Assembly (NCBI GenBank): GCA_038061795.1
Contig: JBBTYL010000002.1
Span: forward strand, 105,511 to 169,510
DNA: 64,000 nucleotides
Reading direction: 5' to 3'
Origin: Patescibacteria group bacterium
GTDB taxonomy: Bacteria > Patescibacteriota > Minisyncoccia > Phycocordibacterales > PALSA-1337
Part shown: one piece after another, positions 3,581 through 51,706 of the stretch
Numbering within the stretch: the stretch's first letter is position 1
How the letters are laid out: every line of letters starts with the position of its first letter
The notes under the pieces: model-generated
Database searches by the model: none
The model's input: only the letters and a program-made list of their open reading frames with translations
Told to the model about the DNA's origin: nothing
Translations under genes and position numbers: made by a program

Positions 3581-5524
3581 TTAAAAATCTATGAAGATAG
3601 CCTTTACTCCACGAGGAGCTTCTTCATCACCCTTTGATTCTATATGCTCATCGCCGATATCGGAAATGAAATTCGATGGAGCATTGACCTTCTGCGCGCC
3701 ATAGATCGTTCGAAGCTGAGCATAGCTCAAGAAAACTTTTTTTCTCGCGCGAGTGATAGCGACATAGAAGAGCCTCCTCTCTTCTTCCGACTGCGATTCG
3801 CTTTTATTTTCTTCACCCATTCTTTGGTGAGGAAACAAATCTTCTTCGAGTCCAGCGATGAAGACATAATCGAATTCGAGTCCTTTCGATGCATGCACCG
3901 TCATGAGCTTAACAGCGTTATTATCTTTTTCAAGTTCATCTTGATCAGTCGCTAGGGCGGCGTTTTCAAGAAGTTTTTCTATGGCTTCACCTGTTGGAAG
4001 CGCATCGTATTGCGAAGCTACGGAGACCAATTCCCTAAGGTTTTCAAGCTTTTCTTGCTCTTCTGGACCACCATTCCTATACACGGTTTCCATTCCGGTT
4101 TCCTTGATGATGAACTTAATGAGCGTCGAAGGATTTTCTTTCATTGAGACTGCTTTAATCCTTTCAAGGAGGTGGAGAAATTGTTCGACCTTGTTCCTCA
4201 ATGAGGGGCCGAGGGTTTTTTCTTGGCCAGTGATTACCTTTAGCATAGTCGCTTTTCCTATTCCGCGAGGCGGAACATTCACGATTCGAACCATGTCATT
4301 CGTACTTTCTCTGTTGAGCGAAGCCTTTATGAATGAAAGCACATCCTTCACCTCTTTTCTCTCAAAGAATTTTACGCCGAGCACCTGATACGGGATATTC
4401 TTATTCAAGAAAGCCTCTTCAAGGACTCGTGATTGGAAATTTGCTCGATACAAGACTGCAATTTCCCGCGCATTCGTTCCTTCAGAAATAAGCTTTCGCG
4501 CTTCATCGGCGACCATTCTCGCCTCCTCGTGTTCCGTATATGAAATAAGAAGCTCGATCTTTTCTCCCTCAGAATTTTTCGTGAAAAGATTCTTTTCACG
4601 GCGCATGAGATTTTTTTTGATGACGTTATTTGCCGCTGCAAGTATCGTCTGAGTTGAGCGATAATTTTCTTCAAGCGTAATGACTTTAGCTTCAGGATAT
4701 TCTTTTTCGAAATTCAAAATATTTTCTATGTCAGCGCCTCTCCATGAATATATATTCTGGTCCACATCGCCCACGACACAGATGTTCCTGTGTGCTTCAG
4801 CGAGTAGTGAAGCAATCTCATACTGAACCTTGTTCGTATCTTGATACTCATCGATGTGTATATAATTCCAAATTCTACTATAGTGTTTCTTTACCTCAGG
4901 ATGCATTTTAAGGATCATTGATGTTTTTAGCAGAAGATCGTCAAAATCGAGCGATTTCTCTTTCGCAAGCGTCGTTTCATACTTTTCCCAGACTTGTGCC
5001 ACTATTTTCTGAAAATATTCCTTCTGACTGTTCTTGTAAGTTGCCAAAGTGACCCCGTCCCCTTTCTCGCGGGAGATCACATTGAGGATCGTCCCCGGCT
5101 CATATTGCTTCGGATCAAGAGAGAGTTCCTCCAAAGCATCTTTTATCGCCCTTTTTGAGTCTCCTCTATCATAAATCGTAAAATGCCTAGTAATTCCCAA
5201 CAAAGCGCTATTTTCTTTGATTATATGGACACCTAGGGCGTGAAAAGTGCTGACGAAGGGTCTTTCGTTGAAAGAAATGGGAATATTAAGGGTTTTGTCG
5301 GTCTCGATAAGGTGAAAGACACGCTCTCGCATTTCCTTTGCGGCTTTGTTGGTGAAAGTTATTGCTAATATCTTCGATGGTTGCACGCCTTGCTTGATCA
5401 GGTTCAGTATCCTGTGCGTTATTGTTTTAGTCTTCCCAGCCCCAGCTCCAGCAATGATAAGAAGCGGGCCTTTTAGGGTTTCTACGGCTTCTTTCTGGCG
5501 AATATTTAGGCTGCTTTCATGCAT
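3581..5524 (-). CDS. pcrA: ATP-dependent DNA helicase, UvrD/PcrA family
   Basis: Walker A AGAGAGKTKT, DEYQDT (motif II), VGDVDQNIYSWRGA, and TVHASKGLEF near the C-terminus. Start moved from the track's GTG at 5551 to the ATG at 5524 (MHESSLNIRQKEAV), which lies 7 nt after TGGTATAGT (5540-5532, minus strand). Confidence 0.9.
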   Translation of the reverse strand: MHESSLNIRQKEAVETLKGPLLIIAGAGAGKTKTITHRILNLIKQGVQPSKILAITFTNKAAKEMRERVFHLIETDKTLNIPISFNERPFVSTFHALGVHIIKENSALLGITRHFTIYDRGDSKRAIKDALEELSLDPKQYEPGTILNVISREKGDGVTLATYKNSQKEYFQKIVAQVWEKYETTLAKEKSLDFDDLLLKTSMILKMHPEVKKHYSRIWNYIHIDEYQDTNKVQYEIASLLAEAHRNICVVGDVDQNIYSWRGADIENILNFEKEYPEAKVITLEENYRSTQTILAAANNVIKKNLMRREKNLFTKNSEGEKIELLISYTEHEEARMVADEARKLISEGTNAREIAVLYRANFQSRVLEEAFLNKNIPYQVLGVKFFERKEVKDVLSFIKASLNRESTNDMVRIVNVPPRGIGKATMLKVITGQEKTLGPSLRNKVEQFLHLLERIKAVSMKENPSTLIKFIIKETGMETVYRNGGPEEQEKLENLRELVSVASQYDALPTGEAIEKLLENAALATDQDELEKDNNAVKLMTVHASKGLEFDYVFIAGLEEDLFPHQRMGEENKSESQSEEERRLFYVAITRARKKVFLSYAQLRTIYGAQKVNAPSNFISDIGDEHIESKGDEEAPRGVKAIFIDF

Positions 5525-5812
5525 GAAGACAACTATACCACAGAGCCTCACACACCGCAGAAAATCATATATTATTACACAATGAAACTAATATATTTTC
5601 AATAGGTTTTATTGACAGAAATCACTATTTTAGTTGTAAAAATCTTTTCCACAAAGGCTATTGACTTATCAAACCCGCTCGGATAGGCTTGATAGGTACC
5701 TCAAAAATAGATGTATAAAAATGGCTTAACAAAGCCTTCTTCTGAAATTTCAGGTTCGCTGACCCCGCCAGTTATGGCGGCCGAATGATATTGCCGAAAG
5801 ACTATTTGTGTT

Positions 5813-6919
5813 ATGAAATATTTATCTCTTTCAGCCAAAAATAAAATAGCTTTTTTCAAAGCCCTTTCTACAAAAGGTTCATTTTTTGTTGCGACGATTA
5901 TGGCGTTGGTTTTAATGCCAGCATCACATCCAAGGACCGCCCACGCTGGTCTTTTTTCTTTCATTTCCGACCTGACTAGCGACAAGGCATCAGCGAAGAC
6001 GCTTGAAGTTCCTGTTGAATTAAACTCGCAGAATATGGCCTTGCTCCAGGCGGCCGTCAATGTGGACCCCAATCCTAATAAGTCTGACTCATATGACCCG
6101 ATAGTGGTCGACAATTCCTTTGTCGCTCAAATCGGCCCACAAGGTACAGCTTCTGATGTTGAAGATAGGATTTCGACCGAAATCAGCCTTTATACCGTCC
6201 GATCTGGCGATACCCTTTCAAAAATAGCTGAAATGTTCGGTGTTTCAGTGAACACCATCATTTGGGCAAATGAACTTGGCAAGAACCCAGTCATTAGAGA
6301 AGGCCAGATGCTCGTTATCCTCCCAATTTCAGGAATTAAATATACAGTCAGCAGAGGCGATACGATTCGCGGAATCGTATCGAAGTACAAAGCTAATCTA
6401 GAAGAAGTTCTTGAATACAATGATTTGACTCTCGCATCGATTCTTGGGATAGGAGATGTCATTGTCATTCCAGACGCTGAACCTACGATTACGGATGTTC
6501 CAAGGATCATCGCCGCAAGAACCACCGTGTCGACCACAAACGTAGTTCATGATGCCAACGGGCCTTTCTACCCAGGATACTATATTCGTCCGATAGATGG
6601 CGGAAAGAAATCTCAGGGTTTGCACGGATATAACGCCATCGATCTCGCTGCCCCAGTTGGTACAGCCATACATGCAGCCGCTGCTGGTACAGTTATCGCA
6701 AGCATGACGAATGGAGGATGGAATGGTGGCTATGGAAATTATGTAATCATATCTCACAAGAACGGAACCCAAACCCTGTATGCTCATAATCAGAAGAATT
6801 TCGTCAGTGTCGGAGATGCCGTTGAACAGGGGCAATTGATTGCAAAGATCGGGATGACGGGAAAATCAACAGGTCCGCACGTTCATTTCGAGATTCGAGG
6901 AGCAAAGAATCCTTTCTAG
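5813..6919 (+). CDS. Secreted peptidoglycan hydrolase: two LysM domains plus an M23 (LytM-type) metallopeptidase
   Basis: Signal or anchor sequence. Two LysM repeats (YTVRSGDTLSKIAEMFGVSVNTIIWANEL and YTVSRGDTIRGIVSKYKANLEEVLEYNDL). M23 signature HxxxD-like GYNAIDLAAP and the C-terminal GPHVHFEIR. Confidence 0.85.
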   Translation: MKYLSLSAKNKIAFFKALSTKGSFFVATIMALVLMPASHPRTAHAGLFSFISDLTSDKASAKTLEVPVELNSQNMALLQAAVNVDPNPNKSDSYDPIVVDNSFVAQIGPQGTASDVEDRISTEISLYTVRSGDTLSKIAEMFGVSVNTIIWANELGKNPVIREGQMLVILPISGIKYTVSRGDTIRGIVSKYKANLEEVLEYNDLTLASILGIGDVIVIPDAEPTITDVPRIIAARTTVSTTNVVHDANGPFYPGYYIRPIDGGKKSQGLHGYNAIDLAAPVGTAIHAAAAGTVIASMTNGGWNGGYGNYVIISHKNGTQTLYAHNQKNFVSVGDAVEQGQLIAKIGMTGKSTGPHVHFEIRGAKNPF

Positions 6920-6929: not shown

Positions 6930-8459
6930 TCAGAAATTTTTCTGCCGATATTGCAAGGCTTCTAATATATGATTTTTTGTAATTTTATCTGATCCCTCCA
7001 GGTCAGCGATGGTTTGTGAAAGCTTGATGATTCTATGATATGCGCGAGCAGACAGACCGAGTCGCTCGGCTGAATTTTTTAACAGATTCCGCGTATCTTT
7101 TTCGAGGGTGATGCTCTTTTCAATGTCTGAAACACCCATCTCGCTGTTGTATTTTTTGTGCTTGATTCCAAGCCTGCCGAATCTTTTCTTCTGAACCGAC
7201 CTGGCCTTTGCTACCCTTTTTCTTATAGAGCCGGAGCCTTCCGCGTGAGTTGAGGCGTCTGCTAAAGCATCATACTCGATTTTTGAAACGGAGACCCACA
7301 TATCTATTCGATCAATTATCGGTCCAGATATCTTCTTGTTGTAATTGCTGATATCTCTATCGCTGCAAGTACAGCCTCTTTCTTTTCCATAACCGCACGG
7401 GCAGGGATTCATAGAAATGACCATGATGCATTGGGCTGGAAATGTTAGAGAGCCTTTTGCCCGTGAAATGGTAATCAATCTGTCTTCAAGCGGCTGTCGC
7501 AAGGCCTCTATGACCTTTTTGTCAAATTCAGGAAATTCATCAAGGAATAGGACTCCCCTGTGTGCCAGGGTTATTTCTCCTGGCCTCGGAAACGGACCTC
7601 CGCCGACAAGCGATGCGTAAGATGATGTATGGTGTGGCGAGCGGAAAGGCGGCTCTGTAATGAACGGCTTTTCGAGTGTTTTAGCAATGGAATGAATTCC
7701 TGTAACCTCAAGCACTTCTTCATGATCGAGCGGAGGGAGGATTCCTTGGAAGGCTTTTGCCAGCATTGTTTTGCCAGTTCCTGGCGGACCGTACATGCCG
7801 ATATTGTGCCCGCCAGCAGCGGCGATTTCCAAAGCCCTTTTTGCGTTTTCTTGTCCGCGTATGACGCTAAAGTCATTTTGAGGCATAGCGGCTCGCTCCT
7901 TGATTTTTGTTACGGATTGTTTTTTGATCTTCTGGTCTTCTGTCCCGGCAAGATGCCGTAGCACCTGGTTGAGGTTTTGAGCTGCGAAGATGTTTGCGCC
8001 CCTTACCAGCCCCGCCTCCTCGGCGTTTTCAATCGGCACGAAGATTTCTCTGAAGCCATGCCGCTGGGCTCCGCGCACCAGTGGCAGAATGCCGCTTACT
8101 TTCCTGATGTTGCCCTCAAGAGATAGTTCTCCTAGAAAGATCTTTTTTTCAGAATCAAAACAGATATCCCCGCTTGCCGAAAGGTATGCCAATGCCATTC
8201 CCAAGTCAAAAGAAGGCCCTTCCTTGCGTATGTCTGCCGGCGCAAGCGATATTACTACTTTTTGATTTTTCTGTTTCGGGGAGACGTAACCGCTATTTTT
8301 TATTGCTGCTGAAATCCGATCGCGTGCCTCATCCACTGCCTTATCGCCGAGTCCCACAATGGAAAAGGCATGGAGGCCATTGGAGAGATCGACCTCTATT
8401 GTGATGATGTGGGTATCCAACCCCGAAAGCTGCGCACTGAATATTCTTGATATGCTCAT
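6930..8459 (-). CDS. comM: Mg-chelatase-like AAA+ protein YifB/ComM
   Basis: N-terminal Lon-protease-like domain, Walker A GPPGTGKTMLAK, GVLFLDEFPEF (Walker B), and a C-terminal ChlI-like tail. TATAGT (8471-8466, minus strand) lies 6 nt upstream of the ATG. Confidence 0.9.
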   Translation of the reverse strand: MSISRIFSAQLSGLDTHIITIEVDLSNGLHAFSIVGLGDKAVDEARDRISAAIKNSGYVSPKQKNQKVVISLAPADIRKEGPSFDLGMALAYLSASGDICFDSEKKIFLGELSLEGNIRKVSGILPLVRGAQRHGFREIFVPIENAEEAGLVRGANIFAAQNLNQVLRHLAGTEDQKIKKQSVTKIKERAAMPQNDFSVIRGQENAKRALEIAAAGGHNIGMYGPPGTGKTMLAKAFQGILPPLDHEEVLEVTGIHSIAKTLEKPFITEPPFRSPHHTSSYASLVGGGPFPRPGEITLAHRGVLFLDEFPEFDKKVIEALRQPLEDRLITISRAKGSLTFPAQCIMVISMNPCPCGYGKERGCTCSDRDISNYNKKISGPIIDRIDMWVSVSKIEYDALADASTHAEGSGSIRKRVAKARSVQKKRFGRLGIKHKKYNSEMGVSDIEKSITLEKDTRNLLKNSAERLGLSARAYHRIIKLSQTIADLEGSDKITKNHILEALQYRQKNF

Positions 8460-8544
8460 GGATCTACTATACTTGAATGAAATGAAGAAATAATGAAAAA
8501 ACCCCCACAGAGGGAGCTTTTTCGCGTCACATTAAAATTTAACC

Positions 8545-8916
8545 TTATTTTGCTGCATTCATATGCTTGATCGAATTCCTTGCGGATGGATTTGCTTCAA
8601 GCCGCTCCCGCTCGATAGGCTCGCCTGACACCTCGCAAATTCCATATGACCCGCTATCAATCCTTTGAAGCGCCGCTTTCACTTCATTTAACTGCGGCTC
8701 AAGTTGCTGAAGTATTGCTTTATTTTCTTCCAATTCTTCCATCTTGTCAGCGACCTCGTTTTCGTCGGCGCTATCGACCTCTATTTTTCCTGATGTCGCG
8801 TCCCAATCCTCAGGGTTATCTGGATTGACCTTTCCTATGCTTGCCAATTCTTCTTCAAGAAGAGCTTTCTCTTTTAGTAATTTATCCTTGAAATACTGCG
8901 TGTCTTTCTTGTTCAT
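8545..8916 (-). CDS. DksA/TraR-family protein with a degenerate zinc finger
   Basis: Acidic coiled-coil N-terminus. C-terminal YGICEVSGEPIERERLEANPSARNSIKH aligns with the CxxC-(17)-CxxC DksA finger (..RL.A.P.A..C..C), but only the first Cys is kept. Confidence 0.65.
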   Translation of the reverse strand: MNKKDTQYFKDKLLKEKALLEEELASIGKVNPDNPEDWDATSGKIEVDSADENEVADKMEELEENKAILQQLEPQLNEVKAALQRIDSGSYGICEVSGEPIERERLEANPSARNSIKHMNAAK

Positions 8917-8927
8917 ATGGCTTAATA

Positions 8928-9941
8928 CTAGCGTATATAGGTCTGTTTTTCAATGCGGTCGAGCAACGCGCTGATCGTCGACTCCGACGTCGCTACGACG
9001 ACGGTATTTTCGTCGATAAAAGAATAAAGGAAGAGCATCTCTCCTTCCTGGCTGATGAACTCCCTTACATCCCTGTTCTTGATTATCTTATCCTCAAATG
9101 TGCCGCGTATGTTGAAGAACGTCGCAATCGAAGTGGTGCTAAGAGGGTCGCCTATCAGCGTGCGCTGCCTGTAGCCTAGGAGATCCGCCAGATCTTCAGG
9201 CATGAATTCTTCCCACTTGAGCATTCCAGCGAAGGCGTTTTGGAAGAAATCGGTCTTGAAAATCATAAAGGGATAATTCTGACCAGCTGAATCATAAACT
9301 CCGAGCATCCATTGGTCGGTCAGCGATCTTTTGAGGATATCAGGCATGTCGAATTTGATTGCCGAGACGAATTGCGACCCAGTAACCCTGACAGTTGTCG
9401 AGGCGACGGTTTTTGTTGGTATTAGCTCCAATATTTTTTCTGAGCCGATTTCGTATCTCATGAATTCGGTTGACAATAAAGTGACCAGCTGCTCCTCATT
9501 CGAGGAATTAATCGCGACGATTTTCTGGGTGTCAGGTTCGACAATGCTTGGGATTTTTATAGCTTTTTGGGCGGGTTTGTCCGGCACAAGCGGGCTCTTG
9601 AGGTATAGATAATAAGCTCCAGCAACCCCAGCCACGATAAAGACTAGGCTTATGACGATAAGCAGGATTTTTTTTCCTGCTTGCGACGGGGGTTTATTTG
9701 AGATGCTTTCGGAACCAGTCTCCCTTTTGTTTTCAGCGACCACCATGCTCATGACAGAAGATTTCTTTCGTGCCAAGGCTTCGGCGACATCGCTTTCGTA
9801 TGTGCGAATCGGCTTTTGAGCATGCTGCCTGTCTCCTGGTTCAACTTGGTTATCGAGAGCGTGGAGGGGCTGTTTCGAAACGCCCATAGAGTTTTGTGGG
9901 AGTATGGCCGCTATTTCTTCTTTGAGCTTGTCCGGGTTCAT
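8928..9941 (-). CDS. Single-pass membrane protein of unknown function
   Basis: Long ORF between pnp and the dksA-like gene on the same strand (9 nt and 11 nt gaps). One transmembrane segment (ILLIVISLVFIVAGVAGAYYLYL). N-terminal IRTYESDVAEAL motif. No family recognised. Confidence 0.6.
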   Translation of the reverse strand: MNPDKLKEEIAAILPQNSMGVSKQPLHALDNQVEPGDRQHAQKPIRTYESDVAEALARKKSSVMSMVVAENKRETGSESISNKPPSQAGKKILLIVISLVFIVAGVAGAYYLYLKSPLVPDKPAQKAIKIPSIVEPDTQKIVAINSSNEEQLVTLLSTEFMRYEIGSEKILELIPTKTVASTTVRVTGSQFVSAIKFDMPDILKRSLTDQWMLGVYDSAGQNYPFMIFKTDFFQNAFAGMLKWEEFMPEDLADLLGYRQRTLIGDPLSTTSIATFFNIRGTFEDKIIKNRDVREFISQEGEMLFLYSFIDENTVVVATSESTISALLDRIEKQTYIR

Positions 9942-9949
9942 CCACCAAA

Positions 9950-12055
9950 TTATAACATGGAGAGGTTGATTCGTTTCTTCTCGTCGATCTGCCTGATGAC
10001 AACATTAATTTTCGTGCCTTCCTTGAAGCGGTCTGACATTTTTTCGGTTTTTGATGGAGCGATTTCAGAAACATGCACGAGGCCCTCAGTATTCCCTGCA
10101 ATTCGTACGAATACGCCGAAATCCATGACTTTTGTAACTTCTCCTTCGAATTTCTCACCGACCTTGTATTCACGGGTCATGTTGTAGATGATTTCCTTTG
10201 CTTTTTTTGCGGTTCCGTTTTTTCCAGTTATGAAAATTATACCGTCGTCCTCAATTGTTATGTCATCGACGCCAGCCTTCTCTTTTATTTCTTTAATCGT
10301 CTTTCCCCCAGAGCCAATGACAAGGCCGATCTGATCCTGCTTTACTCGCATAGTTATGATTTCAGGCGCATTCGGAGAGATATGTTCTCTCGGAGTCTTG
10401 ATTTCCTTTTCGATGAGATCGAGTATGGTCATGCGGGCTGCACGCGCTTTTTCAAAAGCTTCTTTTATGATTTCAAGAGGGATTCCATCAATTTTAACAT
10501 CCATCTGGATTGCCGTGATTCCTTGCCGTGTTCCAGCTACTTTGAAATCCATATCGCCGTGATGATCTTCTGGGCCCTGGATATCCGTAAGAACTTTATA
10601 TTCGTATTTTTTCTTTCCAAGGAGCCTGCCGAGCACTCCAGGTTTCGCTTCACGCATCATAAGTCCTGAAGCGATACCAGCTACTGGTGCCTTGATCGGA
10701 ACCCCCGCATCCATAAGTGCAAGCGTTGATCCGCAGACGGAACCCATTGAAGTTGATCCGTTTGATGAAAATGCTTCAGATACGATTCTGATCGTGTATG
10801 GGAATGAAAGTCGAGATGGAATAATTGGAAGGAGTGCTTTTTCTGCGAGTGCCCCGTGCCCGATCATCCTGCGATTCGTTCCGCCAATGCGTCCCGTCTC
10901 GCCAGTTGAAAATGGTGGAAAGTTGTAGTGGTGCATGAATCTTTTTTCTTCGTGTACCTCCATGCCGTCCATGACTTGAGCATCTCCTGGCCCTCCGAGT
11001 GTCAGAGCAGAAAGAATATGGGTTGCCCCACGATAAAATATTCCAGATCCATGTAGAATCGGAGAAACTCCCCCTGCTTTCACATAGAGGGGACGTATCT
11101 CATCCATCTTTCTTCCATCCGCTCGCTTGTCGTTCTCGATCGCCTCCGTATGGAGAAGCTCGTTTATCTTTTCATCCAAATATTCTTCTGCGAGCGCCTT
11201 GTTGCCTTCTGGGAATTTCTCATTGAAAAGTTTCATCCACACACCAACAACTTCAGCCATTTTTTCTTTTCCTGGGCCTGCAAATACGTATTCAGAAAGT
11301 TTCGGTGCGATTTCAGAAGCAAAAAGTTCTTCCGTCCCAGGAGTAAGCTGCGGCTTTTCGATGGTCTTTTTTGGCTTGCCGATTTCTTTTATGATTCCTT
11401 CTTGCCATGCCTGGATCTTCTCAATTTCCTCGCTTGCCTTTGCGAGAGCTTTATTCACCTCGTCTTCCGTAACTTCCTTTCCTTCGACTTCGATCATGTT
11501 GATGAGCCCGTCCTTCCCGCAGGCCACGAGGTCAAAAGAAATATTCGCCTCTTCGCGCTGAGCGTAGTTTGGATTTACATGAAAGCCTTCGTTCTTTGAG
11601 ATTCGAATAGCTGAAGCAGGTCCGTTCCATGGAATGTCTGAAGTTCCGAGCGCAAGTGATGCAGCGATAACTGAAATGACATCAGGATCATCTTCATCTA
11701 TTGAAAGCACTGTTAGAACCACCTGCACCTCATGACGGATGTGTTGATCAAAAAGAGGTCTAATTGTCCGGTCTACAATTCGTCCAGAGAGAATCGCTTC
11801 GTCAGTCGGCCGCCCCTCCCTGCGGATGAATCTGCTGCCAAGGATTTTTCCTGAAGCATAGAATCTTTCCTCATAGTCGACAGTGAGCGGAAAAAAATCT
11901 CCACCCTTTGGTTCTTTGCCGATGACTGCAGTGGCGAGTACCACTGTGTTGCCATATCGCATCATTACCGAACCGTTTGCCTGCTCTGCTAAGTCATTGA
12001 ATTCTGCTATGAGCGTCTTGCCGCCGACTTCAAGGGAAAATTGTTTGGAGTTCAT
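9950..12055 (-). CDS. pnp: Polyribonucleotide nucleotidyltransferase (PNPase)
   Basis: 701 aa. Two RNase PH-like cores (FPPFSTGE; MDFKVAGT), a KH motif (GSGGKTIKEIKE) and a C-terminal S1 domain (GEVTKVMDFGVFVRI). Confidence 0.95.
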   Translation of the reverse strand: MNSKQFSLEVGGKTLIAEFNDLAEQANGSVMMRYGNTVVLATAVIGKEPKGGDFFPLTVDYEERFYASGKILGSRFIRREGRPTDEAILSGRIVDRTIRPLFDQHIRHEVQVVLTVLSIDEDDPDVISVIAASLALGTSDIPWNGPASAIRISKNEGFHVNPNYAQREEANISFDLVACGKDGLINMIEVEGKEVTEDEVNKALAKASEEIEKIQAWQEGIIKEIGKPKKTIEKPQLTPGTEELFASEIAPKLSEYVFAGPGKEKMAEVVGVWMKLFNEKFPEGNKALAEEYLDEKINELLHTEAIENDKRADGRKMDEIRPLYVKAGGVSPILHGSGIFYRGATHILSALTLGGPGDAQVMDGMEVHEEKRFMHHYNFPPFSTGETGRIGGTNRRMIGHGALAEKALLPIIPSRLSFPYTIRIVSEAFSSNGSTSMGSVCGSTLALMDAGVPIKAPVAGIASGLMMREAKPGVLGRLLGKKKYEYKVLTDIQGPEDHHGDMDFKVAGTRQGITAIQMDVKIDGIPLEIIKEAFEKARAARMTILDLIEKEIKTPREHISPNAPEIITMRVKQDQIGLVIGSGGKTIKEIKEKAGVDDITIEDDGIIFITGKNGTAKKAKEIIYNMTREYKVGEKFEGEVTKVMDFGVFVRIAGNTEGLVHVSEIAPSKTEKMSDRFKEGTKINVVIRQIDEKKRINLSML

Positions 12056-12065
12056 GCTCCCTATT

Positions 12066-12710
12066 CTACTCCTGTCCCGACAAATCTGCTATATCGTCCG
12101 CTACTGTACCGAGAGTTGCGTCTTTCGGACCGCGTCGCTTGAACATTCCCCTTCCAGGGCGTCCATTTGGTCGATTGCTGTTTCCAGCTTTCGCTGCGAA
12201 TCGATTGCCTATGAGATATTTGCTGACATTTTCATCTAGATCATAGAAATCGTCTACGACTTCTCGGAGCTTTGTTGATGTTGATTTTCCAAATGATACA
12301 ACCTCTACTTGGCAGCCTTGATTGACCTGCAAGTATTCTACGAGAGGCGCGAAGTCGCCATCCCCTGTTACGAGAATGACTGCATCGAGCTTTGGTGCGA
12401 GCTTTACAGCATCGATAGCCATGCCGACATCCCAGTCTGCTTTCTTTGCTCCGCTGCCGAAGATCTGGAGATCCTTGGTTTTTGTTTCGATTCCCATCTT
12501 CGTGAGCGCCTCGAAAAAGGCTTTCTCATCGCCTGCTTCCGTCGTGATGACGTATGCGACCGCACGGATGATGGATCGCTCCCCCACCGCATCTTTCACT
12601 ATCTGGCCGAAATTGACCTTTGAGTGATAGAGATTCTTTGCACTATGATAAATGTTTTGCGTATCGATGAATACACCGACTCGCTGTTCCTTATGTTTGA
12701 TTACTGACAT
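12066..12710 (-). CDS. NYN/LabA-like (PIN-fold) putative ribonuclease
   Basis: RVGVFIDTQNIYHSAK ... AVILVTGDGDFAPLVEYLQ matches the NYN/LabA (DUF88) pattern. It has a basic, Gly/Arg-rich C-terminal tail. The gene sits between rpsO and pnp. Confidence 0.8.
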   Translation of the reverse strand: MSVIKHKEQRVGVFIDTQNIYHSAKNLYHSKVNFGQIVKDAVGERSIIRAVAYVITTEAGDEKAFFEALTKMGIETKTKDLQIFGSGAKKADWDVGMAIDAVKLAPKLDAVILVTGDGDFAPLVEYLQVNQGCQVEVVSFGKSTSTKLREVVDDFYDLDENVSKYLIGNRFAAKAGNSNRPNGRPGRGMFKRRGPKDATLGTVADDIADLSGQE

Positions 12711-12808: not shown

Positions 12809-13078
12809 TTACTTAGCCTTAATATCGAGCTTCTTTGCGATACTGTTGTAACGTTTCGTGCTCTTTTTCTTCAAATAATTCATGTGAGTCTGGCGATCGG
12901 CAACCATGGCGAGGAGGCCTCGTCGCGAATGGTTGTCTTTCTTATGCTTCTTCAAATGACTTGCCAATTCGTCGATCCTTTTCGTCAAAATTGAAATCTG
13001 AACCTCTGGAGAACCAGTGTCCTTGTCGTGGATTGCCACGTTTTTGATGATGTTTGACTTCTGTCGTGTCGTTAACAT
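12809..13078 (-). CDS. rpsO: 30S ribosomal protein S15
   Basis: 89 aa. GSPEVQISILTKRIDELASHLKKHKKDNHSRRGLL is canonical S15. Confidence 0.95.
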   Translation of the reverse strand: MLTTRQKSNIIKNVAIHDKDTGSPEVQISILTKRIDELASHLKKHKKDNHSRRGLLAMVADRQTHMNYLKKKSTKRYNSIAKKLDIKAK

Positions 13079-13153
13079 TGTGCATGTATACTAGCACGAA
13101 TGGGTTAAGTGCGCAAGTTTGGCCTAATACGTCGGCAGGGTTATACTTTACCC

Positions 13154-14089
13154 ATGTCGCACAATCTACAGAACCTCAAGACCGAATTTCTCCAATATAT
13201 CGAAATTGAGAGAGGCCGAAGTCTCAATACTGTTCGAAATTATGACCAGTATTTGAGCCGTTTCCTTGATTATACAAAGCTTAAGGATCCCAAAGGCATC
13301 ACAGATGGCGTCGTTCGAGACTTCAGAATATGGCTCAACAGGCAGGAGGCGAAGAAGGAAAAAGGCATGTCAGCTACTACGCTCAAGAAACGCACCCAAA
13401 ATTACTATCTGATCGCTCTGAGAGCTTTTCTAAAGTATTTGGCGAGGCAGGATATAGCTTCTTTGGCTCCTGATAGGATAGAACTCGCAAAAATTCCAGA
13501 AAGAACAATAGATCTTATAACTATTGAGGAATTGAGCCGTCTTCTGGCAGCTCCTGATACTTCGGAACTGCGAGGATTGCGGGATAAGGCCATGCTTGAA
13601 CTCTTTTTCTCTACAGGATTGCGCGTTTCAGAGCTTTGTTCCCTGCCCCGCGATATAAACCTTAAGCTTGATGAGCTTTCTGTTCGCGGAAAAGGTGAAA
13701 AAGTGAGGGTTGTTTTTATTTCTGATGACGCGCGTGACGCACTTGAGCGTTATTTGGACAAACGTGACGATATGGACGATGCGCTTTTTGTGCAAATTGC
13801 AGGCAAAAATGAAAAATTAATGAAAAATCGAGATTCGATGAGGCTCACTTCCCGTTCCGTTGAGAGAATCATCAAGCACTACGCAGTCAAGGCTGGAATT
13901 TCCAAAAAAGTGACCCCCCATGTCATTCGCCATTCTTTTGCGACTGATCTATTGAGAAACGGCGCTGATCTACGCTCTGTCCAGATGTTGCTTGGTCATG
14001 CGAATATCAATACTACCCAGATTTATACACACGTTACTGACAGTGAACTCAAGAAAATCCACAAGAAGTTCCACAGGAAGAGCGAATAG
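13154..14089 (+). CDS. xerC: Tyrosine recombinase, XerC/XerD-like
   Basis: SAM-like N-terminal domain. Catalytic-domain motifs HVIRHSFATDLL and LLGHANINTTQIYTHV (R..HxxR..Y). Start moved from the track's GTG at 13109 to the ATG at 13154, which lies 6 nt after TATACT (13142-13147). Confidence 0.85.
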   Translation: MSHNLQNLKTEFLQYIEIERGRSLNTVRNYDQYLSRFLDYTKLKDPKGITDGVVRDFRIWLNRQEAKKEKGMSATTLKKRTQNYYLIALRAFLKYLARQDIASLAPDRIELAKIPERTIDLITIEELSRLLAAPDTSELRGLRDKAMLELFFSTGLRVSELCSLPRDINLKLDELSVRGKGEKVRVVFISDDARDALERYLDKRDDMDDALFVQIAGKNEKLMKNRDSMRLTSRSVERIIKHYAVKAGISKKVTPHVIRHSFATDLLRNGADLRSVQMLLGHANINTTQIYTHVTDSELKKIHKKFHRKSE

Positions 14090-14103
14090 GTTATGATTAG
14101 TCC

Positions 14104-14898
14104 ATGAAAATAATCTCATGGAACGTCAATGGAATCCGAGCAGTAATCAAAAAAGGCGCTTTTCAATCATTTATCGAGGAACATAAGCCGGACATTCTCT
14201 GTTTACAGGAAACAAAGGCTCAACAAGGCCAGGCTGAGATTGATTTGCCAGAATATGGGGAATATTGGAACTCTGCAGTGAAAAAGGGATATTCAGGCAC
14301 AGCGATTTTTACTAAGGTTAAGCCGATTAGTGTCGAAAACGGCTTCCCTGCCGATATAATCGAAAAATATGGCTTAAAGGCTGATGATTATGGTGATCCA
14401 ACGACCGAAGGCCGCGTCATTGCAGCGGAATTCGAAGATTTCTATGTAGTCACTGTCTATACCCCGAACGCAAAGGATGATTTGAGCCGTATTCCCCTTC
14501 GGCATAAGCACTGGGACCCTGCTTTTCTTGCTTATTGCAAGAAACTAGAAAAAAAGAAGCCAGTCATCTTTTGTGGTGATTTAAATGTTGCGCATACCCC
14601 AGATGATCTCGCGCGACCAAAAGAAAATGTTGGACTCAAAGGATTTACTGACGAAGAACGAGAGGGTTTTCAAAAATTTATTGATGCAGGGTTCGTGGAT
14701 ACATTCAGAATTTCTACACAAGGAAATGGTCACTACACGTGGTGGTCTCACTTTGCAAATGCACGAGAGCGAAATGTCGGTTGGAGAATCGATTATTTTT
14801 TAGTGTCAGCAGCGCTTGTGACTAAAATCAAATCCGCCCTTATTTTGCATGATGTAATGGGATCTGATCATTGCCCCGTCGAGCTTGTCCTTAAGTAA
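14104..14898 (+). CDS. xth: Exodeoxyribonuclease III (AP endonuclease)
   Basis: SWNVNGIRA, LCLQETK, and the C-terminal GSDHCPV motif. 264 aa. TATGAT (14092-14097) lies 6 nt upstream of the ATG. Confidence 0.9.
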   Translation: MKIISWNVNGIRAVIKKGAFQSFIEEHKPDILCLQETKAQQGQAEIDLPEYGEYWNSAVKKGYSGTAIFTKVKPISVENGFPADIIEKYGLKADDYGDPTTEGRVIAAEFEDFYVVTVYTPNAKDDLSRIPLRHKHWDPAFLAYCKKLEKKKPVIFCGDLNVAHTPDDLARPKENVGLKGFTDEEREGFQKFIDAGFVDTFRISTQGNGHYTWWSHFANARERNVGWRIDYFLVSAALVTKIKSALILHDVMGSDHCPVELVLK

Positions 14899-46436: not shown

Positions 46437-46795
46437 CCTAAATTCTCAACTATTAGTTTTTTATTTGTTTCAAAATCTTTTTTATCTCCAGAAACTTTGT
46501 TGTCCGGGAAGACCCATATATGCGCATGATGAACTTCTTCACCAACTATTTTGCTTAAGACAAATTCAGTATTGAAAGCTTTTTTTTGTGCTAGGGCAAT
46601 CTTTTTTACAACTTCAAAATACTCGCCGGCATTTGGAACATCCCAAACCCATCTGTAATGTTGTTTAGGAATTATAAGGGTATGTCCTGGAGACATCGGA
46701 TCAATGCTTAGAAAGGCGAGAAAGTGAGTATCTTCATAGACGACGTGAGCAGGTATGTCTTTTTTTACTATCTTGCAAAAAATACAGTTTTCCAT
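46433..46795 (-). CDS. HIT-family (histidine triad) nucleotide hydrolase
   Basis: MENCIFCKIV... and the HHAHIWVFP histidine triad. Only the C-terminal 120 aa of the 290-aa track ORF look like HIT. The ATG at 46795 lies 6 nt after TGCTATAAT (46810-46802, minus strand). Confidence 0.85.
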   Translation of the reverse strand: MENCIFCKIVKKDIPAHVVYEDTHFLAFLSIDPMSPGHTLIIPKQHYRWVWDVPNAGEYFEVVKKIALAQKKAFNTEFVLSKIVGEEVHHAHIWVFPDNKVSGDKKDFETNKKLIVENLG

Positions 46796-46801
46796 GCAGC
46801 T

Positions 46802-46821
46802 ATTATAGCAGATGGTATACT
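46802..46821. promoter_or_regulatory. Back-to-back divergent extended -10 promoters in the 33-bp HIT/recJ spacer
   Basis: Minus strand: TGCTATAAT (46810-46802), then 6 nt, then the ATG at 46795. Plus strand: TGGTATACT (46813-46821), then 7 nt, then the ATG at 46829. The two boxes are 2 nt apart. Confidence 0.55.
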
Positions 46822-46828
46822 GGTATCC

Positions 46829-48523
46829 ATGCCGAAATATCAAGTGAGGGAAAAGATAGATGGCGATTTCATTGATAATCTGCTCTTTCATCGAGGAATC
46901 AAAACTGCAGAAGAAAAGATGGCTTTTCTCAATCCTGATTACGACAAGCATGTTTATGACCCCTTTTTGCTGAAAGATGCTGAAAAAGCCGCAAAAAGGA
47001 TAATTAAAGCCATTGAAAATGATGAAAAAATAGTCGTCTATAGCGACTATGATGCCGATGGAATTCCTGCAGGAGTCATTTTCCATGATTTTTTCAAGAA
47101 AATCGGCTTTAAGAATTTTACGAATTATATTCCACACAGGCATGATGAAGGTTTCGGCCTCAATGATGATGCTGTCTCTCAGTTTGTTGACGATAAAGTA
47201 AAGCTCCTTATTACGCTTGATTGTGGGATTGCAGACATTGCTGCTGTGAAGCTCGCGAAAAAGGGGGGAATTGATGTCATTATTACAGATCATCACGAGC
47301 CTCATGAGAAGCTACCGCCAGCCTTTGCGATCGTCGATCACAAGCAGAAGGATTGCGAGTATCCTGAAAAAATCCTTTGCGGTTCAGGAGTCGGATATAA
47401 GCTAATCCAGGCGATTCTTAAATCAAACAGGTTTGGGCTTAAGGAGGGCTATGAGAAATGGCTGCTCGATATGGTCGGACTGGCGACGCTTTCTGATATG
47501 GTTCCGCTAACTGGGGAGAATCGTGCATTGGCGCATTTCGGCATGCGAGTCTTGAAAATGAGTCCCCGCAAGGGCCTTATGAGATTGCTTGGGCATTTGA
47601 AAATTCCGCAGAAGCATCTGACAGAAGACGATATCAGCTTCATGATCACTCCGCGCATCAATGCCGCTTCCCGCATGGGCGTTCCGATGGACGCTTTCCG
47701 CTTGCTTGCTACGGACGATGACCATGAAGCCCACGAATACGTACAGCATTTGGACAAGATAAATAATGAGAGAAAGGGAACTGTCGCGGCATTGGTAAAG
47801 GAAGTGAAGAAAATAATTGCTGAGCGTCACGCAGACAATCCTCGAAATGTGATTGTGGCTGGAAATCCCGGATGGCGACCATCGTTGCTTGGACTAGTTG
47901 CCAACAATCTCGCAGAAGAATATGGAAAGCCTGCGTTTTTGTGGGGAAGGGACGGCGATGGCGTGATAAAGGGGTCCTGCCGTTCTGGCGAGACGGTTAG
48001 CGTTGTTGATCTAATGCACAAGGCACCAGTAGGGACTTTCTTGCAATACGGCGGGCACTTCGCTTCCGGCGGCTTTGCGGTTTCAAACGAAGCGATACAT
48101 CACCTTGATGATCATCTCAATTCTGCTTTTGATTTGCTTGCGAAAGAAGATAAAGTAATCGATCCAGATTTCATCGATATGGAGCTTCTGCTTGATGACG
48201 TGAATTGGAATTCGTACGGAAGCGTCGAGAAGCTTGCACCGTTCGGCGTCGGGAACAAGAAACCGACATTCCTTTTTAAGGACATTAAGATTGTTGGAAT
48301 AAAGGAATTCGGAAAAGAAAAAAATCATTTGGAATTGAATTTCAAAAAAGAGAATGGCCAAAGCGTAAATGCCATGGGATTTTTCATGACAGCTGATCTA
48401 TTTAAGAACAAGAAGGGCGAAACGATAAAGCCGACAGATTCGATTGACCTTATCGCTACTATGGAAAAATCGATATTCCGCGGCAAGACAGAGCTTAGGC
48501 TGAGAATTGTTGATATACTATAA
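46829..48523 (+). CDS. recJ: Single-stranded-DNA-specific exonuclease RecJ
   Basis: DHH motifs VYSDYDADGI, TLDCG and ITDHHEP, plus DHHA1 GGHFASGG. Start moved from the track's 46724 (which overlaps HIT) to the ATG at 46829. Confidence 0.9.
   Translation: MPKYQVREKIDGDFIDNLLFHRGIKTAEEKMAFLNPDYDKHVYDPFLLKDAEKAAKRIIKAIENDEKIVVYSDYDADGIPAGVIFHDFFKKIGFKNFTNYIPHRHDEGFGLNDDAVSQFVDDKVKLLITLDCGIADIAAVKLAKKGGIDVIITDHHEPHEKLPPAFAIVDHKQKDCEYPEKILCGSGVGYKLIQAILKSNRFGLKEGYEKWLLDMVGLATLSDMVPLTGENRALAHFGMRVLKMSPRKGLMRLLGHLKIPQKHLTEDDISFMITPRINAASRMGVPMDAFRLLATDDDHEAHEYVQHLDKINNERKGTVAALVKEVKKIIAERHADNPRNVIVAGNPGWRPSLLGLVANNLAEEYGKPAFLWGRDGDGVIKGSCRSGETVSVVDLMHKAPVGTFLQYGGHFASGGFAVSNEAIHHLDDHLNSAFDLLAKEDKVIDPDFIDMELLLDDVNWNSYGSVEKLAPFGVGNKKPTFLFKDIKIVGIKEFGKEKNHLELNFKKENGQSVNAMGFFMTADLFKNKKGETIKPTDSIDLIATMEKSIFRGKTELRLRIVDIL
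48511..48519 (+). promoter_or_regulatory. Extended -10 promoter (TGATATACT) inside the recJ 3' end, 7 nt upstream of the rnhA ATG
   Basis: TGnTATAnT motif. It overlaps the last recJ codons (stop at 48521-23). Confidence 0.45.
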
Positions 48524-48526
48524 TCC

Positions 48527-49015
48527 ATGAATAACGGCACAATTACGATTTTTACTGACGGTTCATCGCGAGGAAACCCTGGTCCTGGAGGCTGGGGAGC
48601 GATTGTTGTTTCTGAAACCACTGTGAAGGAGCTCGGCGGAAGGGAGGATATGACGACGAACAATAGAATGGAATTGCTTGGTGCAATTGAATCTTTAAAT
48701 TCTGTCGACTCAGCAGATTCAATTATCCTCCATTCTGATTCCCAATATGTAATAAAAGGCATGACAGAATGGATTGCTGGCTGGCAGAAAAGAGGCTGGA
48801 GGAACTCTCAGAAAAAAGCCGTATTGAATCGTGATCTTTGGGAAAGGCTTCTCGAGGCGTCTGAAGGAAAAAATATCAAATGGATGTATGTGAAAGGCCA
48901 TGCAGAAAATCCTGGGAACAATAGGTGTGATGAAATAGCTACGACATTCGCTGATAATGAGCCTACTAGGCTCTACGAAGGAACCCCTTCTGGTTACTCG
49001 GTAAAAATTCACTAG
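48527..49015 (+). CDS. rnhA: Ribonuclease HI
   Basis: IFTDGSSRGNPGPGGWGAIV, NNRMELLGAIESL and DSQYVIKG motifs, which carry the DEDD catalytic residues. Confidence 0.9.
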   Translation: MNNGTITIFTDGSSRGNPGPGGWGAIVVSETTVKELGGREDMTTNNRMELLGAIESLNSVDSADSIILHSDSQYVIKGMTEWIAGWQKRGWRNSQKKAVLNRDLWERLLEASEGKNIKWMYVKGHAENPGNNRCDEIATTFADNEPTRLYEGTPSGYSVKIH

Positions 49016-49045
49016 AAATTCATCTCAACCTGCTAGGCTAGTTGG

Positions 49046-50407
49046 ATGAATCATAAGAAGTTTAATTTTATTCTCATAATTGTCTTACTTGCGACAATTT
49101 GCACGCGGGGCTATTTTGCTTTTGATAGGGGTAATCGTGATGCGATGGTTGAGAAGTATTCAGGCCAGACAGTTGAAGTGCTTGGAGTTATTTCTGATGA
49201 GCCATTGGTAAAGGATTTTACTAAGACATTTACAGTGCGCGCAGAAAAAATAAATAGTGAAACAGAGAATGTTTCACTTCGCGTACAGACAGAAAGATAT
49301 CTTGATTTCGAATATGGACAAAAGATTATTTTAAAAGGGAAATTGTCTGCGCCATTCAATTTCAAAAGCAATGGAGGAAGGACATTTGATTACATCAACT
49401 TTCTTCTGAAGGATGGGATTTATTTCGAAATGAAGAAGCCTGTGATTGAGATCGTCGGCGAAAGGGAAGGAAGCATCATTTCAAAAACACTTTTCAGTAT
49501 CAAGCAGGGATTTCTTGGAAATATAAAGAAAGTCTTAGGTGAGCCTCACGCCGCCCTCGCAGGCGGACTTGTGGTTGGGGAGAAGAGCGCGCTTGGGAAA
49601 GAATTAATCGATGATTTTAGGATGGCAGGACTCATACACATCGTTGTGCTTTCTGGCTATAACATCACAATCGTCGCAGATTCGATTAGGAGAATCCTAG
49701 CTTTCTTGCCAAGGACTATCGGCATCATCCTTGGCGGTTTGGGAATCGTTAGCTTTGGAATCCTGGTAGGAGGCGGGGCAACTGTCGTACGTTCGTGCAT
49801 CATGGCTGTGATTGCTCTCTTCGCAACGCTTTTACGAAAGGATTACAATGTCGGCAAAGCGCTCTTTATTGCTGCAGCGCTTATGCTTATTCAGAATCCC
49901 TTGATACTGTTTTACGATCCGTCCTTCCAGCTTTCGTTTCTTGCGACATTCGGCCTGATCCTTCTTTCGTCTCCGATAGAGAAACGGCTTGGATTCATAA
50001 CGGAAAGATTCGGAATCAGGGGACTTGTGGCTTCGACGCTTGCGACCCAGATATTTGTTTCGCCCTACATCCTCTACATGATGGGACAACTGTCGATCAT
50101 CGGAATGGTTGTAAATATTCTTGTTTTGCCAATTATTCCTACAACGATGCTTTTTGTTACGCTTACCGGATTGTTCGGTTTCGTCTCGACGTTCATATCG
50201 GAAATAACAGGATGGGTTTCCCATATCCTGTTATCCTATGAGCTTATGATGGTCCGCTTCTTCGCGCATGTACCTTTTGCCTCAATCAATCTTCCGAAAT
50301 TTTCCTTCTGGATAGTCGTTGGATTCTACGCCAGCTATTTCGTCGCGCTTGCGAAATTTCCCTCGACGATTTCCCAATTCAAGTTTTGGAAAAAATCTTC
50401 CACATAA
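49046..50407 (+). CDS. comEC: ComEC/Rec2 DNA-uptake channel: N-terminal OB-like (DUF4131) and competence domains only
   Basis: N-terminal transmembrane segment plus OB-like region, then the polytopic competence domain (LAGGLVVGEKS..., HIVVLSGYNITIV). It ends without the usual C-terminal metallo-beta-lactamase domain. Confidence 0.85.
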   Translation: MNHKKFNFILIIVLLATICTRGYFAFDRGNRDAMVEKYSGQTVEVLGVISDEPLVKDFTKTFTVRAEKINSETENVSLRVQTERYLDFEYGQKIILKGKLSAPFNFKSNGGRTFDYINFLLKDGIYFEMKKPVIEIVGEREGSIISKTLFSIKQGFLGNIKKVLGEPHAALAGGLVVGEKSALGKELIDDFRMAGLIHIVVLSGYNITIVADSIRRILAFLPRTIGIILGGLGIVSFGILVGGGATVVRSCIMAVIALFATLLRKDYNVGKALFIAAALMLIQNPLILFYDPSFQLSFLATFGLILLSSPIEKRLGFITERFGIRGLVASTLATQIFVSPYILYMMGQLSIIGMVVNILVLPIIPTTMLFVTLTGLFGFVSTFISEITGWVSHILLSYELMMVRFFAHVPFASINLPKFSFWIVVGFYASYFVALAKFPSTISQFKFWKKSST

Positions 50408-50883: not shown

Positions 50884-50935
50884 GGATTTTCATTAAATTC
50901 ATTAAAATTTCACTCGACTTATATATGATTGTAGC

Positions 50936-51706
50936 ATGGATTTTTTCAAGAAAAATTGGAAGTGGCTTTTTGTGGCTCTGGCGCTAGCTTCCTTAGGATT
51001 GGGCTTTTATATCTGGAAATGGGAATTCAGAGAGCCCTTGCTTGAGGTGCATTTCTTTAGCCTGAACAAAGGCCGCTCCATTTTTGTCAGAACTTCAGAA
51101 AGCAAAACCATTCTTATCGGAGGAGGGCAGAACTCGGAAGTTATTCGAGAAATTACCAATGTGCTGCCGTTTTATTCCCGCAAGATTGATTATGTACTTA
51201 TTCCAAGTGCTGTTCCCGCGCAGATCGGCGGACTAATCGAGGTGATTGATAGGTATGAAGTTGGGGAAATCATCATGCCGAAACTCTTAGCTACAAGTAC
51301 TGTCCTTACGCAACTTATGAAAGAAGTCAGAAAGAAAAAAATTCATATTGAAGAAGTTGAAAAAGGAGACGATATAGAAATCGGCGGAGCCAAACTCGAA
51401 GTCCTTTTTCCATATGAAGAATTCAAATTCAACAAAAGCAGCCTGCCAGAATTAGGGCTAGAGATTTCTTACAAAGATACTTCTGCATACCTGATGGGGA
51501 ATTTATCAAAAACAATTCAAAAGGATATTCTGAAAAACACTGAAATTAATAAAGGCGAAAATATAATCGAATTCTATAACAGTATGGCAGACGGGAAAGT
51601 TTATAAAGAGCTGGTGGAGGCAATTGATCCGAGGTTCATTTTTTCAACGAATGAGAAAGCCGCCACGATGATATCGGACGGGGAAGGGTGGCGAAAAGAA
51701 AGATAG
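50936..51706 (+). CDS. Stand-alone ComEC-type metallo-beta-lactamase-fold domain with all metal ligands substituted
   Basis: N-terminal transmembrane segment. LLEVHFFSLNKGRSIFVRT..TILIGGGQ aligns with the ComEC l.v.flDVGQGDa...LiDgG motif. IDYVLIPSAVPAQIGGL aligns with iD.liLTHxHxDHiGGl. DVGQGD has become SLNKGR, and HxHxDH has become SAVPAQ. Confidence 0.6.
   Translation: MDFFKKNWKWLFVALALASLGLGFYIWKWEFREPLLEVHFFSLNKGRSIFVRTSESKTILIGGGQNSEVIREITNVLPFYSRKIDYVLIPSAVPAQIGGLIEVIDRYEVGEIIMPKLLATSTVLTQLMKEVRKKKIHIEEVEKGDDIEIGGAKLEVLFPYEEFKFNKSSLPELGLEISYKDTSAYLMGNLSKTIQKDILKNTEINKGENIIEFYNSMADGKVYKELVEAIDPRFIFSTNEKAATMISDGEGWRKER

Follow-up and report, generated by a model that had tools for sequence, protein, structure and literature searches.

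Published work has established that many Parcubacteria lack an anti-Shine-Dalgarno (anti-SD) sequence and have almost no Shine-Dalgarno (SD) sites, and has left open how their ribosomes find start codons. The same question is raised by the DNA considered here, a stretch of 64,000 nucleotides (nt) from a Patescibacteria group bacterium (contig JBBTYL010000002.1), referred to below in its entire 64-kb length as the window. A sequence-only reading of the window had drawn attention to genes in which a TATAAT-like -10 hexamer ends 6-7 nt before the ATG with no SD sequence, and had taken this to be a genome-wide signature of leaderless mRNAs. All 14 of the hexamers that it listed, and their ATGs, were found in place on read-back, and the gap, defined as the number of nt that separate the hexamer's final T from the first base of the ATG, amounts to 6 in nine genes and 7 in five; a TGn extension lies upstream of the hexamer in seven of the 14. 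The observation is confirmed, and both the sequence itself and the comparison with relatives support its interpretation: leaderless transcription from extended -10 promoters, coupled with the absence of SD-led initiation, is probably the best explanation of the data as a whole.

Any statement about the genome at large depends on two bodies of sequence, the window and about 2.4 Mb of related loci. The latter consist of 80 loci recovered with a RecJ query, one genome per species (L001-080), and 80 metagenomic loci around comM (L088-167); it should be noted that these 160 loci represent two syntenic neighborhoods in which about 40 gene families recur, and that counts taken from them are not independent. 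The RecJ-query loci all belong to Patescibacteria of the candidate phyla radiation (CPR), within the Parcubacteria/Paceibacteria group (80 of 80). The nearest of them, with RecJ identities of 92-76%, are labelled Taylorbacteria or generically 'Saccharibacteria', and those farther away Nomurabacteria, Yonathbacteria, and RAAC4_OD1_1. The window itself is attributed to a member of the class Paceibacteria (Parcubacteria) close to 'Ca. Taylorbacteria', and look-ups with exact proteins trace it to Hainich groundwater, well H41, on a contig of 208,735 bp.

When the first ATG of each of the 64 long open reading frames (ORFs) of the window is taken blind to the motif (the first-ATG rule), TAnnnT is present at gap 6 or 7 in 16 of them, as against 61 of all 2341 ATGs in the window (2.6%; binomial p 6.7e-12). 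A second, gene-call-free test proceeds from a strict -10 hexamer to an ATG at the head of an ORF of 80 codons or more, over gaps of 0-30; in the window it gives 8 cases at gap 6, 6 at gap 7, and 0-3 at each other gap. After the TGn-extended form, TGnTAnnnT, such ATGs at gaps 6 and 7 number 4 and 5 in the window, 48 and 32 in L001-020, and 119 and 69 in L021-080. Over the related loci, TAnnnT starts at -12 in 19% and at -13 in 10% of 332 ORFs in L001-020, in 18 and 10%, respectively, of 907 ORFs in L021-080 (baseline about 3-6% in both), and in 21 and 9% of 879 ORFs in L088-167 (baseline about 3%), with just 3-7% at the offsets adjoining the peak. The sharp peak in spacing that the sequence-only reading had expected is therefore seen at gaps 6-7 both in the window and in the 160 related loci. 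By the first-ATG rule, 25-29% of all ORFs are of the leaderless type, against a background of 6-8%, and the 105 loci that contain 12 or more ORFs have median fractions of 29% for the leaderless type and 5.6% for SD. With curated starts, a box lies at 5-8 nt in about 18 of the 61 protein genes of the window, namely the 14 already mentioned together with a dksA-like gene, the gene for a 337-residue protein, cca and, weakly, pnp. The codon found at gap 6 is ATG in 171 cases, GTG in 14, and TTG in none.

A peak of this kind might be a by-product of A/T-rich intergenic composition combined with a choice of starts fitted to the motif; the upstream regions are indeed A/T-rich, and some starts in the sequence-only reading had been chosen by the motif. 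This explanation was tested and rejected, and it appears extremely improbable, because the peak persists under both the motif-blind first-ATG rule and the gene-call-free test and the neighboring offsets remain low. The same script applied to 50 kb of Escherichia coli K-12, covering the homologous str/S10/spc region, finds the hexamer at this spacing in 2 of 55 ORFs and an SD sequence in 27 of 55 (49%), and therefore tells the two kinds of genome apart. Composition also fails to explain the enrichment of TG and the conservation of the element in orthologues. Although the bases around them diverge, box and spacing are retained at protein identities as low as about 40-50% for tpiA, recJ, the HIT-family gene, rnhA, comEC, and the gene for a 256-residue protein, and are likewise retained in orthologues of xer, xth, pcrA, comM, the dksA-like gene, and cca.

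The nature of the element is indicated by positions that had not been used for selection. Among 230 gap-6 cases, T is found at -17 in 65% and at -15 in 71%, and G at -14 in 67%; T at -10 (59%), A at -9 (77%), and A at -8 (70%) are also favored, and a pyrimidine at -1 (76%) precedes the purine at +1 that is the A of the ATG. The consensus, TnTGnTATAAT, is by its sequence the extended -10 element of sigma-70/sigma-A promoters; no -35 signal is present in the logo of the 230 cases. The motif also follows gene context, being present ahead of 54% of same-strand genes with a spacer of 16-40 nt and 31% of divergent genes, and ahead of just 12% of genes that overlap their upstream neighbor, which is near background. 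Finally, it precedes genes that are not translated. All four tRNA genes of the window (17556-19074) have individual boxes, 12-29 nt upstream; three of these boxes are of one identical variant, TGNTAGTAT, which occurs also before rpsO. Among tRNA genes of the relatives in the second set of loci, a box precedes 18 of 42 (p 2e-11), at distances of 4-47 nt and with no peak at 6-7 nt.

These features bear on a second explanation, in which TAnnnT is an RNA-level, non-SD ribosome-binding signal at a fixed short distance, of the type placed in group B by GeneMarkS-2, acting for example by pairing with an altered 16S tail or through S1 on mRNAs that have leaders. The fixed distance from the ATG would be accounted for in this way, as would the presence of the motif before same-strand followers such as rnhA and xth, which begin 3 nt behind recJ and 14 nt behind xer, respectively, and the 16S tails of Parcubacteria can be AU-rich. 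Yet the flanking T-17, T-15, and G-14 spell a DNA-level extended -10 element, the box stands at variable distances before tRNA genes, and a pyrimidine stands at -1 and a purine at +1. Moreover, the motif is near background before overlapping genes and most frequent where a spacer of 16-40 nt just fits a promoter, and genes with leaders have only diffuse A/T-richness and not this motif. An RNA-level motif, which leaves the TG, the tRNA genes, and the depletion at coupled genes unexplained, was therefore rejected and is considered most improbable.

Strong extended -10 boxes are also found with leaders of 20-130 nt, ahead of nusA, rpsL, and the genes at 31981, 28730, and 12710. The element therefore appears to be the general promoter of the organism, and the genes with the box at 6-7 nt a specific subset. 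In the minus-strand nusA region (29943-30017), a strong TGGTATACT promoter is followed by a leader of about 57 nt, the ATG being at 29945, and a terminator-like hairpin (29996-29977) with a T-run lies inside this leader; on its sequence, the hairpin could be an autoregulatory attenuator. In the rpsL-rpsG-fusA operon (53612-53762), TATAAT lies about 130 nt upstream of rpsL, and no Rfam family reaches its gathering score with this long leader.

If the boxes are promoters, transcription might nevertheless start a few bases away from the ATG, or the true start codon might lie downstream, in which case most of the mRNAs would have short leaders. The spacing does extend over 5-11 nt in some genes (rpsO, 9; ORF 17026, 10; ORF 58404, 11; ArsR-like gene, 9), and the distance from the -10 element to the transcription start differs between species (PMC12641261). 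Boxes at 9-16 nt are present in five more genes of the window, rpsO, ORF 17026, the ArsR-like gene at 46107, ORF 58404, and pilB at 32151, for which very short leaders are therefore predicted. For the subset as a whole, however, short leaders in place of none are unlikely, because the sharp peak at 6-7 nt is the canonical distance from -10 to +1, and leaders of 5 nt or fewer are in any case counted as leaderless in the field (PMC3898074). The start codons themselves are constrained: in xth, rnhA, tpiA, and comEC, no other start codon lies between an in-frame stop and the ATG. Pfam domains at the N terminus begin 3-13 residues after the proposed Met, and Pfam and PDB alignments taken together 1-13 residues from it. 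The sequence-only reading held that the pattern picks starts that give canonical N termini, and this is borne out by ClpP, in which Met 25537 aligns to residues 2-3 of full-length solved ClpP chains, and by RsmE, in which Met 25607 aligns to residue 1 of Bacillus subtilis YqeU (1vhk).

It had also been anticipated that automatic annotation would mis-call starts in this genome, and exact-sequence look-ups in a public collection of gene calls show that it does. The leaderless forms of RecJ (564 residues) and PcrA (647 residues) are not on record, whereas GTG-extended forms of both are. The leaderless ClpP (189 residues) is on record, together with a form of 195 residues in one assembly, and RsmE is on record in its leaderless form (229 residues), no longer form being seen. 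The extended recJ call overlaps the HIT-family gene and both promoters between the two genes. Over-extended N termini, by 35 codons in recJ, 9 in pcrA, and 6 in clpP, are thus already present in public protein collections.

The second part of the question concerns the SD sequence, scored as GGAG, GAGG, or AGGA within -20 to -4. Such 4-mers are found in 2 of 60 ORFs in the window, in 6.3% of those in L001-080, and in 7.1% of those in L088-167, compared with 10.2% of random 17-mers drawn from the same sequences; the contrast with E. coli has been given above. The earlier suggestion that initiation is largely SD-independent is supported by these values, and no GGAGG was found on inspection upstream of rpsL, rpsG, fusA, or tuf. 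Before genes that have no box, A/T-rich 4-mers are enriched 2-2.7-fold, SD 4-mers are at 0.8-0.9 times expectation, and G falls to 10-12%, in agreement with the AT-rich upstream regions previously noted for the four genes just named. A trade-off between SD use and leaderless frequency among the relatives could not be discerned, because all 105 loci compared are SD-poor. An ATG followed by AAAA (+4 to +7), which gives a lysine second codon, occurs in 10-21% of ORFs in the window and the loci, and an A-rich coding start of this kind may favor the initiation of translation where the mRNA is leaderless or unstructured.

On the ribosomal side, no rRNA gene was found in the window, which was searched with Rfam, or among the 160 related loci, and the sequence beyond the window ends yielded only the S10/spc ribosomal protein operon and short contigs, with no 16S. 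Genes for uL1, bS21, uS2, and IF3, sought in order to place the lineage in the 'uL1-lacking' group, were not found in the sequence examined, which is part of the genome. Loss of the anti-SD has been described for a Parcubacteria subgroup, with bS21 often absent and bS1 short (Tsurumaki et al. 2022, PMC9297842). Tails of 16S rRNA that lack CCUCC, with SD ahead of about 2% of genes, have been listed for Campbellbacteria, Wolfebacteria, and unnamed Parcubacteria (PMC10783764; Amin 2018). Taylorbacteria are absent from the supplementary anti-SD tables of three published papers. Amin 2018 lists 53 organisms and 0 variant anti-SD for 'Nomurabacteria', in a table that does not state the number of 16S ends actually read.

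Taken together, the data suggest a scheme in which some 25-30% of protein genes (about 18 of 61 in the window) would be transcribed from an extended -10 element, TnTGnTATAAT, lying directly ahead of them with no recognizable -35, and in which RNA polymerase with the housekeeping sigma factor would start at the A of the ATG or no more than one base from it. With the last T of the box 6-7 nt ahead of the ATG, transcription should start at the A and produce an mRNA without a 5' leader, and the 5'-terminal AUG would be recognized directly by a ribosome carrying initiator tRNA, as in the established leaderless pathway. The other genes, which likewise have no SD, either have A/T-rich, G-poor upstream regions or overlap or abut the upstream gene, and presumably use initiation on unstructured leaders or termination-reinitiation coupling. 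Many promoters appear to be squeezed into spacers of 16-40 nt or to lie within the final codons of the gene before, with the result that neighboring genes on one strand would often each have a start of their own. The transcription starts, the ribosomal mechanism, and the mode of translation of the genes with leaders are predictions from the sequence.

Several points weigh against this scheme. The start of transcription on the A is deduced from promoter geometry only, and a form of the mRNA with a leader may coexist, because transcripts from promoters farther upstream would also run through genes whose own promoter lies in a short same-strand spacer. Leaderless transcription is not the sole mode, in view of the strong boxes with leaders of 20-130 nt before nusA, rpsL, and other genes. 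A few boxes are weak, namely those of comEC (TAGGCT) and pnp (TAGAAT) and those of comM and xer, which lack the TG; the boxes of comEC, comM, and xer are the weakest among the 14, and all three are kept in orthologues. The counts from the related loci measure conservation and not genome-wide frequency, because they come from two syntenic neighborhoods with the same families. Finally, since Amin 2018 lists no variant among 'Nomurabacteria', the anti-SD may be retained though unused.

Both components of the scheme, leaderless initiation and extended -10 promoters, are well known, and no new mechanism is revealed. Leaderless-rich genomes, including those of Actinobacteria and Deinococcus-Thermus, form group C of GeneMarkS-2 (PMC6028130). 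In Mycobacterium tuberculosis, 26% of genes are leaderless, with a TANNNT -10 element, no -35, and TGn in 7% of promoters (PMC3898074); in Deinococcus deserti, 47-60% of mRNAs are leaderless (PMC4007540). The present genome resembles these in having TAnnnT 6-8 nt before many starts, no conserved -35, a pyrimidine at -1 and purine at +1, and a quarter or more of its genes in this class, with mis-annotation of starts as a consequence. It differs from M. tuberculosis in that about two-thirds of its boxes are TGn-extended with an upstream T, and also in the genes concerned: active-growth genes are depleted from the leaderless set in M. tuberculosis (PMC3898074), whereas here tpiA, clpP, recJ, and pcrA are of the leaderless type and the leader predicted for rpsO is 2-3 nt. 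Group C genomes are G+C-rich, unlike the present genome with its 44% G+C, and retain SD sequences for genes with leaders and for genes internal to operons (PMC6028130), whereas here the remaining genes have none; promoters packed into spacers of 16-40 nt and into the 3' ends of upstream genes are a further difference. The system is therefore distinct from the classic cases in three ways, the mostly TGn-extended boxes, the lack of SD for the remaining genes, and the location of promoters in minimal spacers and 3' ends.

Other comparisons are instructive. The SD-scarce Parcubacteria that lack an anti-SD (class iv, PMC10783764; PMC9297842; Amin et al. 2018) belong to the same broad lineage and also have SD at or below background, but those reports concern rRNA-side loss and the absence of SD and do not say what takes its place, whereas a positive replacement signal is found here. 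In its sequence (TnTGnTATAAT), its weak or absent -35, and its occurrence before both protein and tRNA genes, the element resembles the extended -10 (TGn or 'TRTGn') sigma-70/sigma-A promoters of Gram-positive bacteria; unlike in those, its placement would put +1 on the start codon of a large share of genes. The non-SD initiation of the Bacteroidota type (group B) is similar in the lack of SD and in the A-rich, G-poor sequence before genes that have leaders or are internal to operons, but in group B a single RNA motif stands a short distance ahead of every gene and leaderless transcripts are few (PMC6028130), whereas the motif here is that of a promoter and is found ahead of some genes and of the tRNAs. 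No report of leaderless mRNAs or their promoters in CPR, Patescibacteria, or Parcubacteria was found in the literature, subscription journals lying outside the search; the word 'leaderless' does not occur in PMC9297842, and the cited papers on leaderless-rich genomes and on SD loss make no mention of leaderless transcripts in the group. The box is a concrete candidate answer, for a large share of genes, to the question of how starts are found, and is testable in existing groundwater metatranscriptomes. TnTGnTATAAT at 6-7 nt from the ATG also provides a simple model for re-annotation of CPR genomes, prediction of transcription units, and design of expression constructs. A more tentative proposal, which at present seems somewhat less likely to hold than to fail, is that the whole class Paceibacteria may have given up SD-led initiation, with almost every gene either coupled or provided with its own -35-less extended -10 promoter, and with leaderless (70S-type) initiation the default for housekeeping genes; this may be linked to a reduced ribosome (loss of anti-SD, bS21, and uL1, and a short bS1).

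The individual elements of the window are listed in the table. With respect to the identities that the sequence-only reading had assigned to the 14 genes, Pfam matches agree for 11 (UvrD/PcrA, ComM, ClpP, HIT, Xer, Xth, RsmE, TIM, RecJ, RNase H, and ComEC); in the same Pfam search the other three, the membrane protein, the W/G-repeat protein, and the 'MBL-like' gene, had no match.

Boxes, promoters, and extended public gene calls in the window (positions in the window; gap in nt from the last T of the box to the ATG)
Feature	Position	Strand	Box	Gap	Remarks
pcrA, public call	3581-5551	-			656 residues from GTG 5551; +9 residues
pcrA/uvrD	5522..5540	-	TGGTATAGT	7	Pfam UvrD domain from residue 6
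comM	8457..8471	-	TATAGT	6	
dksA/traR-like gene	8914..8930	-	TAGTAT	8	ATG 8916; absent from the sequence-only reading
337-residue protein, function unknown	9939..9957	-	TGTTATAAT	7	ATG 9941; absent from the sequence-only reading
pnp (PNPase)	12053..12068	-	TAGAAT (weak)	7	ATG 12055; box inside 3' end of upstream NYN-domain gene
rpsO (S15)	13076..13096	-	TGCTAGTAT	9	predicted leader just 2-3 nt
xer recombinase	13142..13156	+	TATACT	6	
xth	14092..14106	+	TATGAT	6	box begins 2 nt past xer stop codon
cca (CCA-adding enzyme)	16958..16975	-	TGCTACTAT	6	ATG 16960; absent from the sequence-only reading
tRNA-Arg promoter	17556..17581	+	TGCTAGTAT		16 nt ahead of mature 5' end
tRNA-Gly(GCC) promoter	17681..17699	+	TATACT		12 nt ahead of tRNA
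tRNA-Pro promoter	18347..18385	+	TGCTAGTAT		29 nt ahead of tRNA
148-residue membrane protein	18500..18518	+	TGATATACT	7	
tRNA-Gly(TCC) promoter	18969..19003	+	TGGTAGTAT		25 nt ahead of tRNA
clpP, public call	24968-25555	-			195 residues, one assembly; +6 residues
clpP	25535..25549	-	TATGAT	6	ATG 25537
rsmE	25595..25609	+	TATAAT	6	ATG 25607; divergent from clpP, 69-nt spacer
W/G-repeat protein, 378 residues	30068..30083	+	TATTAT	7	no orthologue in the related loci
tpiA	38969..38986	+	TGGTATACT	6	27-nt spacer
recJ, public call	46724-48523	+			599 residues from GTG 46724; +35 residues
HIT-family gene	46793..46810	-	TGCTATAAT	6	kept in orthologues
recJ	46813..46831	+	TGGTATACT	7	kept in orthologues
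rnhA	48511..48529	+	TGATATACT	7	box within last recJ codons; ATG 3 nt past recJ stop
comEC	49031..49048	+	TGCTAGGCT	6	weak hexamer
256-residue protein ('MBL-like')	50924..50938	+	TATGAT	6	no Pfam match

Conservation can be followed gene by gene. More than 55 orthologues of tpiA have TGnTATAAT 6-7 nt ahead of the ATG, about 25 of comM have a TGnTA..-type box 6-7 nt ahead of ATG or GTG, and those of pcrA retain TGnTATAGT-N7-ATG. Orthologues of the dksA-like gene have TAGAAT or TAAAAT at 6-8 nt. The box of the 337-residue protein is kept in L088 and L094, that of cca in L088, L089, and L130, and that of the 256-residue protein in L001, L002, L015, and L027. In comEC, TGCTAGnnT is kept in L001, L004, L013, L015, and L027, the start in L001 being GTG. 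The ATG of xth follows an in-frame TAG, and its box is kept in orthologues. A leaderless box for pnp is doubtful in this genome; several relatives have a clear TGnTAnnnT at 6-7 nt before the gene.

The HIT-family gene and recJ diverge from a 33-nt spacer in which two extended -10 boxes, TGCTATAAT on the minus strand and TGGTATACT on the plus strand, stand back to back 2 nt apart. Each -35 position falls inside the opposite gene, so that two polymerases should be unable to sit on both promoters together; the arrangement is kept in L001, L002, L005, L008, L010, L011, L014, and L015. At the other end of recJ, the sequence around the rnhA box (48505-48529) reads ..GTT GAT ATA CTA TAA. Because many relatives retain GTTGATATAAT, the C terminus of RecJ (VDI) and the rnhA promoter appear to be mutually constrained.

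In more than 25 orthologues, the start of xer reads TGCTACAAT-N6-ATGTCGCA, and the gene opens with ATGTCGCACAAT in nearly all relatives (13154-13165 in the window). A dif-like palindrome of ATGTCGCACAAT at the 5' end of xer was considered and rejected, none being formed within the window. In more distant relatives (L113, L118, L134, L135, L140, and L144), the same 13-mer (TGTCGCACAATAT) lies upstream of the xer promoter or is inverted, and this conserved sequence could serve as an operator or bind the recombinase as a dif-like site.

Two further observations concern the relatives and the neighboring genes. Many close relatives (L003-L005, L008, L010-L013, and others; 76-80% RecJ identity) have been deposited as 'uncultured Candidatus Saccharibacteria', a label that is probably wrong, since they group with Taylorbacteria/Paceibacteria. 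The genes of a type IV pilus or type II secretion system-like cluster (32126-38956), comprising a PilB-like ATPase and the genes downstream of it, form an abutting or overlapping chain with no internal boxes that starts from TGATATAAT, 16 nt ahead of the ATG; together with comEC and comM, the content of this cluster suggests an apparatus for DNA uptake.

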